Assembly: GCA_012295275.1 (NCBI GenBank)
Contig: CM022678.1
Location: 6,324,001-6,388,000, forward strand
DNA: 64,000 nucleotides
Origin: Chrysomallon squamiferum
Taxonomy: Eukaryota > Animalia > Mollusca
Direction: 5' to 3'
Shown here piece by piece: positions 198 to 63,713 of this stretch; position 1 is the first letter of the stretch; each line of letters opens with the position of its first letter. The position numbers and the translations under genes were made by a program. The notes under the pieces were generated by a model. That model saw only the letters and a program-made list of their open reading frames with translations. It was not told where the DNA came from and ran no database searches.

Positions 198-3100
198 GTT
201 CTACTGGAGCAACAGGTAAATGATTAAACGTAAAAAGCAATAAAAATACAAAAATAAGATATTAAATAACCTTTTCTTTGAGTCGTTTTATTTTTGCCTA
301 TTTCTACTAAAATATGTTTAATATTCCTCAACTGAACTGTTTTTTTATATTTTTTTGTGTTTTTTTCTTTTTGATAGGAAAATGTGGTTAGTTGTCTTCC
401 AGTAAACACATAAACAATTTTTATTAGTTTTTAATCAAAGAAATTTTTCTTTTGCTTATTTTTAATAAAATATATTTAATATTCCTCAATTTGATTCATA
501 ATTTCATTTTATGTTTATTCTACTATTAGTGTCTTTTTGTGTACCATCTTCCAGAAAATGTTTAAATAATGTTTACTGTATTGAAATTATATATAAATCT
601 AAAACACAAACAAATTCTAAAAAGTAATATTATTTATACCTCTCTTCTTTTTAACACTTTTACATTTCATATGACTATATTTATTGTTATTTTACATTTT
701 TCAGGTTCATCTCCAACATCATGTAAGTTATTAGATAAAAAATAAAATAAAATAAAAATAAAAATAAATAAATAAGAAATACAAAAATAGATATACGTAT
801 CTTAATAATCCTTTCTAAGAAACGAGCTATTTTTTAAACTGTTTTTACATTTCATATAATAATATTTACACTAAATAAATGTATTACTGTTGTTGCTGTT
901 GTTGTTATTATTATTATTATTCTTATTATATACATGTCTGTATTTTCTGAATAAATAATAAATACATTTATTTTATGATTAAATCCTTTTTTAAATCCTT
1001 TTTTTTTTTTTTTTTTTTTTTTTTAGTTTCGTCAGGGTCAACAGGTATATTATTATTTATTATTATTATTATTATACAAGCGATAAAAAGACTACAGATA
1101 GACAGATAGATAGAGAGATAGACAGATATATTAATTGATATATAGATAAGTAACCTATTCTCAGAAAGGTTTTGTAATTGCTTTGTTCTAATAAAATATC
1201 TTTAATATTCGTCAAGTTGATTAATAACTTTAGAATTTCATATTCTATTGCGGTCACTTCCAAATAGCATTATTTCATTAAAGAATTAAATAAAGTTTAA
1301 AATCTGCAAATTATATAAAAATCTAAAACACAATAAAATGACATGATTAAGTAAGATATGCGTTTCAAAATAAATTACTTATACTTCTCTTCTTTAAAGT
1401 ATATAATTTATAGTTTTCATGCAGTTATATTTATTTTATTATTATTTCTTTTTTAAAGGTTCATCAGGAACATCAGGTACATTATGATTATTATTATTAT
1501 TATTATTATTATTATTATTATTATTATTATTATATACATGAATATCAACAGGTTAATTATTACATATATAAAGCAGCAAAGAATACAAGTTAGATACATC
1601 TGTTCTGTGAATGATTTCGTTATAACTCCTTTCTGAAACAATATGTTTAATATTCCTCAGTTTGAGTAATAATTTTATTCTATTTGTATTTTGTTGCAGC
1701 ATCTTCTGGCACTTCCGGCACTTCCGGTAAGTATTTAAAACAAATTCAATGTCTTTATATTATTTATATATAAAACTCTAAAACATTAAAATTCATAATT
1801 AATTAAATGAAGCATACTTATTAAAAAGAAGATTAAAAAAAAAAAAACGTCAAAAGCCCCCCCCAAAACACCCAAAAAGAACAAAAAAACCCACCACGTT
1901 ATGTTAGTTTTAAGAAAATATTTTTATTTTTTTCCAGCATTTACAAATATTAAAACAATTTATGTAGTCTTGAAATTATATAAAAATCTAAAACAACATT
2001 AATATTTTATAATTAATTAAGAAAAAACAAAGTATTTAACTTTATTCAGATTTGTTTGGAACAAGATGTAAATTATTAGATATAAAAAGTATCATAGAAT
2101 ACAAATACAAATATATCTTTTTATTGAAACTTTTCTTTTGTTTATTTATACTAATAAAATATATTTAATATTCCTATATTAATAATTTCATTCTATTTTT
2201 ATTCTACTATTAGTGTCCTTCTTGTGTGCGATCTTCGAGCAAATGCTTAAACATTTTTTTATTGTGTTGAAATTATTTAATATAAATCTAAAACACAAAC
2301 AAATTCTATAAAGTAATATTATTTATGTCTTTGTTATTTTTAACAATTTCTATGTTTCATATGTCTATATTTGTGGTTATTTTATCTTTTCAGGTACATC
2401 CGGAACAACAGGTAACTCATTATAAATAATAATAATAATAATAATAATAATAATAATAATAATAATAATATATTATTATTATTATTATTATTATTATTAT
2501 TATTATAACAAGAAGATTGGAATAGTATTTATTAAATACAAATTTCAGCCAAAACATATTTTCAAGCTTCTAGAGGAACAACAGATCAAAATAAATTTTC
2601 AATTACTACATTTCTCATTTTTATAAATTTTAAATCGTTCATTAATTTTATATCAGAATTACGATTGGAAATAAAAGTATATGAAACGTTGAATGATCTT
2701 ATAACTTAAGAACAGTTTCTTAGAATAATGCAGTTTAAAATAGAATCATTTAAACGTTGGTTTTTATAACACTTTTTACATTTTATAGTGAATTGTCCTT
2801 TTTCTTAGAATGTGTTTAATAATGTCCTTTTTCCTAGAATGGCTTTGAATGTGTTTAATAATGTCCTTTTTCTTAGAATGGCTTTGAATGTGTTTAATAA
2901 TGTCCTTTTTCTTAAAATGGCTTTGAATGTGTTTAATATTCTTGAGTTTGATTAATAATTTTATTCTATTTGTATTTTTTTATTATTTTGTTGTAGGATC
3001 CTCCGGCACTACGTTTTCCAGTAAGTACTGAAACAATTTTAACGTTATGAACTTATTTATATTTATTTATACATATATAAAACATACTAAAATTTCATAA

Positions 3101-61600: not shown

Positions 61601-63713
61601 CATCTTTTTTTATTTCTAAGAAATATAATGAAAGAATTATATTTCATCATTTATGTCATTAGAACTTTAAAAACAAGAAAAGGGTAACATCACCTTTCTG
61701 AACGTGGAAAAATGGAAAAGATTTTTAGAAAACTAAGGTAAAATTATTTTGTTCAAACTCTTAGTTAATAAATATGTTGTATATCCTCCATTACTGAATT
61801 GATTATGAAATTTTAATATCTTTCAGAGTTACATACATAAATATTTTCCAAACATTAAAATTGTTTCCATACTTACGGGTTGTAGTAGGTGTCACTACAA
61901 AATAAATAAAGAATGTATATATATATATATATACACACACACACACACACACACACACACACATCCAATGAAAAAATTAAGAATGTTAATAGGTAAAATT
62001 ATTTCGTTGGAATTGATGGTTAATAATCTTGATACATAATGCATTATTTAACTGATGATGAAATTGTAATATCTTTTAGACTTATATAAACATTTTCAAA
62101 GCATTGAGACTGTTTCAATACTTACTGGTATCAGTAGGTGTTGCTACAAAAAATGGAATAAAATAGTTAATGAAATTGAGGAATATTAAAGATACTCAAA
62201 ACAATTCTAGGAAAAACATTTTTTTCACAAACCTGGTTAATGTAACTTCGTCCTCTTTCCCAATCGATATATTTTATAACAGAACTTTTGGTACAGAATA
62301 AAGTTAATGAAGGAATTATATTTCATCAGTTATGTCATTACAACTTTAAGATGAAGAAAAGGGGAACATCACCTTTCTGAATGTGGAAAAACGAAAAAGA
62401 CTTTTTTCAGAACTAAGGAAACATTATTTTGTTCAAACTCATAGTTAATAAGTATGCTGTATCCTCCATTACTGAATTGATTATGAAATTTTAAAGTCTT
62501 TTAGATTTACATACATAAATATTTTCAAAATATTAAAATTGTTTCCATACTTACTGGTTGTAGTAGGTATCGCTACAAAATAAATATTGAATATATATAT
62601 ATATAATTATCGAATAAAAAAATTAATAATGTGAATCTGGAGAAATTAGTAAGATTTCCTTAGAAGTAACGTAAAATTATTTCTTTCAAATTGATACTGG
62701 ATAAGCATGGTAGATACTTCATTATTTAACTGATGATGAAATAGTAATATCCTTTAGACTTATATAAACATTTTCAAAACATTAAAACTGTTTCATTAGT
62801 TACTGGTAGTAGTAGGTGTTCCTACAAGAAAAAATGGAATAAAATAGTTAATGACTTTCAGGAATATTAAACATATTCAAACGAATTGTAGGAAAAAGAT
62901 TGTTTCACAAAGTTGGTCCATGCAACTGTGTCCTCCTTCCTAATTGATATATTTTAAAACGGAACTGTTTGTACACAAGAACCCCAGTATATATATAAAT
63001 GTATATATATATAGGTAATCGAATATTTAATAATTTAATTTTAGTATTGTGATATACTTTAAAAAGAGGGCTCTGATAATTAGTTCACCTTTTTTTAATC
63101 AAAGAAATATAATGTAAGAATTATATTTCATCAGTGATTTCAGTAGAACTTTAAAAACAAGAAAAGGGGAACATCACTTTTCTGAATCTGGAAAAATGAA
63201 AACTGTTTTATCTGAAGTTTTAATTGACCAGTTTGTGTAATTTCAAGACCATATAAATTGTTCTAATATTTACTGGAAGACGACGTCTAGAAGTAACAGA
63301 ATAAAATAAAATAAAATAAAATAAAAACATTGTTAATCAACCTGACATACATAAACGATATTTTATTAGAATTAAAGAACAGTAAACCATTCTAAGAAAA
63401 ATGTATTTCAGAAAATAATGAAGCAATATGATTTTATCTGATTCTTGAAAAGATGGAAAAGACTGACTATACTGGGATTACTAACACCCTTTACTGGTCC
63501 TAAGCAAACATGTTCAGATTCCAACTTCTGCTTTATAAATATATTATATACAGTATTATTTAATTATAAAAATAGTGAAAAAAAAATGGCTCGATTCTTA
63601 GAAAGGATTATTAAGATACGTGTATCTATCTTTGTACTTTTTCTTTATTTTATTATTTGTTTTATTTTTATTTCTTTTTATATATAATAACTTACCTGTT
63701 GTTCGAGATGAAC
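40637..63713 (-). CDS. Micro-exon gene C (5' part beyond the window): Thr/Pro-rich mucin-like protein encoded by ~58 18-nt exons
   Basis: Repeated tttt(g)YAG|CAACACCTACTACTACCA|GTAAGT-type exons every ~230-560 bp, e.g. 62821-62804, 62572-62555, 62143-62126, 61894-61877 ... 43420-43403, 43175-43158, 41609-41592; upstream exon 63713-63696; stop exon 40647-40630. Hexapeptides TTPTTT, RTPTTT, TIPTTI, TTPTDT, MTPTTT, TTPRTT; ends TTPRRT-TTPAAV-CDW*. No stop codon in any exon before the last. Confidence 0.8.
42350..63200. repeat. Complex tandem array of exon+intron units with higher-order periods of ~1.49, ~2.16 and ~2.39 kb
   Basis: MTPTTT-type exon at 50318, 51807, 53295, 54805, 56290; block pairs 45400/47783, 46188/48573, 58230/60392, 59711/61877. 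Confidence 0.92.

Follow-up and report, generated by a model that had tools for sequence, protein, structure and literature searches.

Can a gene be assembled almost wholly from exons of 18 nucleotides (nt), each of which adds one hexapeptide to a secreted chain of low complexity? This question is raised by a 64,000-nt stretch of Chrysomallon squamiferum DNA (contig CM022678.1, positions 6,324,001 to 6,388,000), called the window in the following, in which an earlier note had recognised three clustered runs of such micro-exons. Here we refer to them as genes A, B and C and give all positions relative to the window. From their sequence, A, B and C are probably paralogous mucin-like genes built from tandem exon-intron cassettes, with Ser/Thr/Pro/Gly-rich products that would likely be secreted and probably O-glycosylated. 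That the micro-exons are real is a claim that we make with good confidence.

Both strands were scanned for the pattern AG|N(L)|GT, in which the insert of length L had to be GC-rich and a pyrimidine tract had to be present, and looser scans and direct reading were added. The minus strand gave 54 matches at L = 18 and at most seven at any other length, and the plus strand gave four matches at L = 18, every one of them in gene A. In total, 84 intact micro-exons were found (stop exons included), of which nine belong to gene A, 17 to gene B and 58 to gene C, where the earlier note had counted about 85 by eye. The scans and the reading also returned the same three genes, strands and end coordinates as that note. 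All 84 micro-exons have AG/GT borders. The great majority (77 of 84) are 18 nt long and the others have 12 nt (one), 24 nt (four), 27 nt (one) and 17 nt (the stop exon of gene B). The statement that all lengths are multiples of three is thus correct for 83 of the 84 and wrong for the stop exon of gene B, in which the stop codon precedes the irregular end. The 81 stop-free coding micro-exons all have a length of 3n and are in phase 1, and the stop exons of A and C have 18 nt each. Beyond the signal exon, every coding exon is between 12 and 27 nt long.

Each cassette has one GC-rich 3n exon placed between a pyrimidine tract with YAG and the donor GTAAGT. In the 84 tabulated units the donor is GTAAGT in 59, and the acceptors are TAG (63 units), CAG (20) and AAG (one). 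The introns are 180-1548 nt long across the three genes. Downstream of the arrays there are merely one to three short exons, a stop codon and a non-coding exon, with the stop codon at most about 10 nt from the last junction in all three genes, a position that would be compatible with escape from nonsense-mediated decay. No other domain-encoding exon was seen inside the spans of A, B and C. By the scans as well as by the reading, the architecture proposed before, namely symmetric phase-1 micro-exons, a stop codon close to the final junction and a last exon that is non-coding, is real.

Gene C (39375..64000, minus strand) is present with its 3' part only and its 5' end is beyond the window. A micro-exon of the Gly/Ser type with 18 nt (63696..63713) is followed by an array of 56 intact 18-nt PT-type exons (41592..62821) with the consensus TTPTTT in phase 1. 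These exons each run 18 nt downward from the following first bases: 62821, 62572, 62143, 61894, 61336, 61089, 60656, 60409, 59984, 59728, 59173, 58926, 58494, 58247, 57713, 57462, 57029, 56576, 56307, 55506, 55078, 54822, 54259, 54008, 53578, 53312, 52758, 52511, 52083, 51824, 51268, 51019, 50589, 50335, 49781, 49536, 49106, 48876, 48590, 48055, 47800, 47371, 47130, 46701, 46473, 46205, 45672, 45417, 44989, 44761, 44509, 44094, 43851, 43420, 43175 and 41609. Two further units of the array are defective. One has an intact 18-nt body and a donor changed from GT to GA (55736..55753) and is predicted to be skipped, and the other is truncated (42640..42711), with the upstream flank and the first nine exon bases left and the rest deleted. 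The chain ends in a stop-bearing micro-exon of 18 nt and of Gly/Ser-type origin, with TGA in phase 1 (40630..40647), and the non-coding last exon (39375..39486, the low end being approximate) carries the poly(A) signal AATAAA at 39398-39393.

The introns of gene C (n = 58) are 210 to 1548 nt long with a median of 332. A self-BLAST showed higher-order repeats with periods of 1499, 2163 and 2410 bp and 93-94% identity, and Tandem Repeats Finder, with its period limit of 500, reported only a period of 225 bp. One cassette type has (AT)n or (TA)n tracts directly upstream. Furthermore, the introns share the motif GAAACA(R)TTTTAAT between positions +7 and +25 past the donor, in nearly all 57 cassettes, and this segment is less variable than several positions of the exon. 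A scan of metagenome contigs with one gene C exon and its splice flanks gave no matches.

The exons have a coding character in one phase only. In the 42 distinct coding exons of A, B and C, phase 1 has no stop in 219 codons, whereas phase 0 is interrupted by stops in five exons and phase 2 in eight. Of the residues read in phase 1, 86% are S, T, P, G or A, and 74% of the second codon positions are C. None of 2000 shuffles within exons reached these values, the mean of the shuffles being 38% S/T/P/G/A and 8.2 stops. The 57 tabulated C units encode TTPTTT 14 times, RTPTTT seven times and TTPTDT seven times, and five MTPTTT peptides make up much of the rest. Fourteen of these 57 exons are mutually identical and most others differ by one to three bases. 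The exons of A and B read GSSPTS, FSTGST, GSTGAT and alike. Moreover, the GC content of the exons is 0.45 in comparison with 0.21 in the 100 nt on either side and it is higher in the exon in 84 of 84 units, an excess which holds between cassette families with flanks that are 20-40% different. Because of what is established about Pro/Thr/Ser domains, the chains encoded by the three genes are expected to be densely O-glycosylated.

If the micro-exons were used, their splice signals, length and frame should be kept better than their surroundings, which is a comparison that the earlier note had asked for. Gene C was searched with profiles of the upstream and downstream flanks alone, so that units were not chosen by their splice sites. 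This search found 58 cassettes, of which 56 are exactly AG|18 nt|GT, one has 18 nt with the GA donor and one is the truncated unit. The 57 units with an 18-nt exon were compared along a minimum spanning tree. The AG and GT dinucleotides changed at one of 224 site-edges, whereas the rate in exons would predict 14.4 changes (P = 5e-6) and that in the flanks 11.9 (P = 7e-5), and there were no exon indels where 5.3 would be expected (P = 0.005); these P values are indicative only, because the edges depend on one another to some degree and gene conversion may contribute. The alignments of the higher-order repeats show the same two tendencies with less power: the splice dinucleotides changed at one of 132 sites while the introns changed at 496 of 10438 (4.8%, P = 0.02), and exon indels numbered 0 against 3.5 expected (P = 0.03).

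Gene A (198..5290, plus strand) is likewise represented by its 3' part, since its 5' end lies before the window. It is a phase-1 chain of nine micro-exons, Ser/Thr/Gly-rich and ending in TAA. The first four have 18 nt each and encode the cores STGAT (198..215), SSPTS (705..722), SSGST (1027..1044, with an internal CAG and hence a possible in-frame 9-nt form) and SSGTS (1459..1476, with the AAG acceptor). They are followed by micro-exons of 27 nt (1700..1726), 18 nt (2394..2411), 24 nt (2997..3020) and 12 nt (4042..4053), by the 18-nt stop micro-exon with TAA in phase 1 (4437..4454) and by the non-coding last exon (5156..5290, end approximate) with AATAAA at 5266-5271.

Gene B (25160..37177, minus strand) is complete in the window: its TATAAA box lies at 37177-37172 and its poly(A) signal at 25182-25177. 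Exon 1 (37109..37147) is a predicted 5' untranslated region (UTR), with a start deduced from the TATA box and a donor GT at 37108-37107. Exon 2 (36597..36671) is signal-peptide-like, has 75 nt, ends in phase 1 and has an ATG at 36647. Its hydrophobic core ..AVLVVALLVTMTFAT is in a frame other than that of the ATG, with the shift at a run of four T, and this break could be either a real frameshift or a homopolymer error. Of the 5'UTR and signal-peptide exons noted before, the former was thus found again together with its TATA box, and the latter is signal-like and frame-broken. The 16 intact coding micro-exons of gene B lie within 27209..36020. Thirteen of them have 18 nt (36020-36003, 35012-34995, 34510-34493, 34191-34174, 33806-33789, 33478-33461, 33083-33066, 32771-32754, 31743-31726, 31448-31431, 31250-31233, 29845-29828 and 28520-28503) and three have 24 nt (30366-30343, 27734-27711 and 27232-27209). 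A flank-homology search in A and B added a decayed unit at 32253..32270, a homologue of A 1459-1476 with its acceptor changed from AG to AC. In two other units the acceptor was lost, to TG at 29337..29354 and to GG at 27942..27959, and in both, use of an internal CAG would still give a 9-nt exon in frame (29345-29337 and 27950-27942, respectively). The stop micro-exon of 17 nt has TAA in phase 1 (25920..25936), and the non-coding last exon (25160..25298, low end approximate) contains the AATAAA given above.

Some other elements were observed in and near gene B. Between C and B, upstream of the TATA box of B, there are two micro-exon-like AG/GT units of the Ser/Gly type (37732-37715 and 37987-37964, minus strand), which may be remnants of an incomplete gene copy or exons that escaped recognition. 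An intron of B holds a hairpin-like inverted-repeat element with (AT)n flanks (26540-26790, minus strand) that looks like a small foldback transposon; its depth is high in X1, a DNA-like sequencing run with 0.42 of the window words, and short pieces of RNA-run contigs land there. The three RNA runs compared in this way were chosen by species or study label and cover 0.01-0.02 of the window words. On 24501-27642 their contigs place just low-complexity pieces of 18-41 nt, none of them on the last exon of B, which has no bearing either way on expression.

The three genes are related to each other, as the earlier note had argued from shared intron sequence and a homologous 3'UTR exon. Intron families are common to A, B and C and the three last exons can be aligned, both the CAG acceptor and AATAAA being kept. 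A 28-nt core common to the last exons occurs in three copies in the window and was absent from each of 100 shuffles; metagenome contigs scanned with this core gave no matches. The block 118-1339 of A is 90% identical to 35092-33896 of B, and the block 4816-5600 of A is 82% identical to 39828-39058 of C, which indicates segmental duplication.

Besides the genes themselves, the flank downstream of A (5600-6590, plus strand) is homologous to the flank downstream of C (39058-37350, minus strand), which is the region upstream of the B promoter. The duplication therefore carried the gene end and about 1.3 kb. Gene A is in inverted orientation relative to B and C, around the central genes of the window. 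One segment of the last intron (25446-25550) is common to all three genes (A 4770-4990, where it is duplicated; C 39640-39720). It reaches a depth of up to about 440 in X1, in comparison with 13-45 nearby, and is probably a dispersed repeat.

How such genes would work can be outlined from the layout. The introns would be removed by ordinary splicing, and the 18-nt phase-1 exons would be joined in the mRNA. The conserved intron segment GAAACA..TTTTAAT after the donor may, as a speculation, help in the recognition of exons this short. The array would grow and shrink through unequal crossing-over between cassettes, as the higher-order units of about 1.5, 2.2 and 2.4 kb indicate. The gain, loss or skipping of a cassette, as well as the loss of a splice site, would change the protein length in steps of six residues and keep the frame, and because all exons are symmetric in phase 1, decayed units would be tolerated in the arrays. 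Selection would act on splice signals, exon length, frame and Ser/Thr/Pro composition and not on the exact peptide.

Several observations weigh against reading A, B and C as mucin-like genes of this kind. The reading is drawn from DNA sequence throughout, and for A and C, which have their 5' ends outside the window, no signal peptide could be seen; in gene B the frame from the ATG of exon 2 reads MKLF and then a stop. Five further cassettes, two in C and three in B, are decayed by truncation or loss of a splice site, which corrects the earlier note. Gene C is without the stretch carrying the last two coding exons of A and without a stop exon of the A/B type, and ends instead at the stop inside an altered Gly/Ser-type exon. 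Gene conversion could inflate the apparent conservation. Moreover, the exon sequence is no better kept than the intron, so that the conservation expected for functional exons was found for AG/GT, 3n length and open frame and not for the sequence between them. In the alignments of the higher-order repeats the exons differ at 24 of 594 sites (4.0%) and the introns at the 4.8% given above (P = 0.49). The divergence in the tree comparison is 0.064 in exons and 0.053-0.09 in flanks, and in old cassette pairs it is 0.35 in exons and 0.33-0.39 in introns. Of 85 differing internal codons in the tree, 69 change the amino acid and 16 are silent, and the changes at codon positions 1, 2 and 3 number 54, 57 and 34. 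The excess of amino-acid-changing differences, with the third position changing least, means that no purifying selection is visible on the peptide. A candidate result that exons evolve faster than introns (0.344 vs 0.192 in gapped flank alignments) was dropped, because the ungapped comparison with the nearest flank gave equal rates and the gapped value is an alignment artefact.

Observations of this sort would be expected if the genes were relics, that is, former micro-exon mucin-like genes which are now pseudogenes in whole or in part (B above all) and drift neutrally, their splice sites looking intact only through recent copying. The frame-broken signal exon of B, the loss of the acceptor in three of 19 Gly/Ser-type cassettes of B, the mutated donor and the truncated unit of C, and an exon substitution rate equal to that of introns with a prevalence of amino-acid-changing differences all agree with it, and the clusters of the schistosome mucin genes SmPoMuc hold many pseudogenes too, as the available text of PMC2576457 describes. 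Yet copies of the higher-order units of C that are 6-7% diverged show the single AG/GT change in 224 where 12-14 are expected, and lack the expected 5.3 exon indels. In addition, exons that are GC-rich, free of stops and made of NCN codons have been kept although the background has 21% GC, and this holds between old cassette families as well; the frameshift of B, located in a homopolymer, could have arisen in the assembly or belong to one allele only. We consider such decay of the whole set unlikely, albeit an explanation to be taken seriously, and gene B alone may be a pseudogene.

Further from our interpretation is a non-coding satellite or transposon-derived repeat in which AG and GT surround a GC-rich 18-mer by chance. 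The cassettes are indeed tandem repeats with a higher-order structure, their introns are as conserved as the exons, and some intron pieces are high-copy in X1. However, a satellite leaves unexplained the selective keeping of four splice nucleotides and of exon length, the fact that one phase alone is open, with 86% S/T/P/G/A, in diverged exon families, the exon lengths of 12, 18, 24 and 27 nt, which are all 3n, and the threefold gene-like succession of promoter, signal-like exon, stop close to the final junction and poly(A) signal, and we regard this origin as highly improbable. It is easier to imagine, and still improbable, that the genes are, in line with the earlier note, an engine of variation in which regulated combinatorial exon skipping would yield many variant secreted proteins per gene. 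Since all exons are symmetric, any subset could be skipped in frame; the exon peptides diverge fast; the TTTCGNCAG|G-type exons contain internal CAG sites that would give alternative exons of 9 nt in frame; and the transcripts of the micro-exon genes (MEGs) of schistosomes vary by exon skipping, according to the available part of the review PMC4015677. With 14 of 57 C exons identical and most others one to three bases apart, however, skipping would alter the length of the product more than its sequence, and splice sites that are uniformly strong (GTAAGT in 59 of 84) favour constitutive inclusion over regulated weak exons. The reading of A, B and C as paralogous mucin-like genes made of exon-intron cassettes can be compared with systems already described.

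By layout and not by sequence, we judge SmPoMuc to be the closest known system, followed by the MEGs. The available text on SmPoMuc describes genomic repeats of about 1 kb, each with one 27-bp exon and separated by microsatellites, in up to about 20 copies, and genes which encode mucin-like repeats and are clustered with pseudogenes (PMC2576457; review PMC4015677). The intron part of these repeats is more than 94% identical (PMC2576457, as far as available), the same pattern as here, where the higher-order copies are 93-94% alike. Both systems thus have tandem repeats of one small symmetric exon with flanking intron (58 cassettes in C), microsatellite separation (here the (AT)n upstream of one cassette type), a mucin-like Ser/Thr/Pro-rich repeat peptide and clustered paralogues with broken members included. 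They differ in the exon (18 nt here and 27 there), in the cassette (228-580 bp here and about 1 kb there) and in the copy number, which is at least 56 here and at most about 20 there. The conserved non-repeat C-terminal part of SmPoMuc (exons 3-15) has no counterpart here, where the coding region is almost wholly made of micro-exons. As the host is a mollusc here and a flatworm there, the two are compared by layout and no homology is expected.

The resemblance to schistosome MEGs which the earlier note had pointed out is borne out by the descriptions in the available part of PMC4015677. Most of the coding sequence is in very short symmetric exons in both (MEG micro-exons of up to about 36 nt, here 12-27 nt), a signal peptide exon stands at the 5' end (here a signal-like exon, seen for B only and frame-broken), the secreted products are small or of low complexity (here by prediction), and ab initio annotation overlooks such genes. 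On the other hand, exons within one MEG vary in length and sequence and do not line up as long tandem arrays of cassettes that are nearly identical, and for MEGs it is documented that exon skipping creates variants, while the genes described here are known from their DNA. The hosts are again a flatworm and a mollusc, likened by layout, and an independent origin of the layout in the mollusc is plausible.

The gene for spider flagelliform silk (Flag) is reportedly a further case of iterated exon-intron modules with introns homogenised at least as well as the exons, an observation said to go back to Hayashi and Lewis in 2000. It is like A, B and C in that a repetitive secreted structural protein comes from tandem modules of exon plus intron and the introns are as homogenised as the exons, and unlike them in that its exons have hundreds of bases with many motif repeats each and encode a Gly-rich silk, not a Thr/Pro-rich mucin-like chain. 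Chicken BG genes have strings of 21-nt exons and fibrillar collagens have 54-bp exons, so that in both one short symmetric exon corresponds to a structural repeat (heptad or Gly-X-Y blocks). These exons encode a coiled-coil tail or a triple helix with structural periodicity, and unlike those found here they are neither Ser/Thr-rich nor organised in recent tandem cassette arrays. In classical mucins the repeat domain is encoded by one very large exon, together with VWD, SEA or other domains. They share with A, B and C the Pro/Thr/Ser-rich repeats that evolve fast, vary in number and are expected to carry dense O-glycosylation (background partly from the available text of PMC1325057), whereas the genes described here have one hexapeptide per exon, and no globular domain and no VWD, SEA or Cys-knot exon was seen in their spans. 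In the literature searched, which covers sources other than subscription journals, no description of micro-exon genes of molluscs themselves was found. The layout, known from schistosome mucins, has apparently not been described in molluscs before.

The scale of the arrays is striking, and its support is DNA evidence. If they are transcribed, the principle of one exon per repeat would here be taken to an extreme, with at least 56 consecutive 18-nt exons that need to be spliced correctly. A mucin-type domain would here be built and resized by the duplication of exon-intron cassettes and not by slippage inside one giant exon. Because the conserved intron segment follows every donor, the genes would also lend themselves to studies of how very short exons are recognised. 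Furthermore, they would represent a class of secreted proteins which annotation based on open reading frames (ORFs) as well as ab initio annotation would miss or mask as repeat, a point of relevance when the proteins of mollusc mucus, of the shell matrix or of host-symbiont surfaces are catalogued. An unlikely but attractive extension is that the products form a hypervariable, length-polymorphic mucin coat, in which unequal crossing-over and in-frame skipping would give a glycoprotein that differs per individual or tissue. If this is true, the coat would be a convergent, snail-side counterpart of the polymorphic mucins used by schistosomes against snails.

The window is eukaryotic and strongly AT-rich, and its middle carries ordinary genes. 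Over 1-6000 and 24000-64000 its GC content is 0.20-0.26, and between these two parts it is 0.26-0.41. An SLCO4A1-like gene for an organic-anion transporter lies on the plus strand (7168-16500) and has long introns full of microsatellites. Its first coding exon is near 7168-7345, an exon of 153 residues (7973-8431) matches OATP clusters in the Atlas, and a Kazal-domain exon is near 14190-14290. For the 153-residue exon, all 20 named matches among the top 26 are from molluscs, the highest identity being 70%, and a match outside the molluscs does not occur before rank 27, in agreement with the earlier impression of an apparently molluscan genome.

Three other features are located on the minus strand of the middle region. 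An open frame at 21564-21974 contains a thrombospondin type 1 domain (Pfam: TSP_1, E = 8.6e-07) and is probably one exon of a larger gene. An ORF of 86 codons at 23093-23350 has a signal-peptide-like start followed by a very acidic Asp/Glu/Ser-rich tail; no Pfam family was found above the cut-off for it, and from its sequence it may encode a small secreted acidic protein. A tandem repeat at 17500-19750, G/T-rich on this strand, has ORF translations that recur every 41 codons or so (about 123 nt) and resembles a satellite more than a gene.

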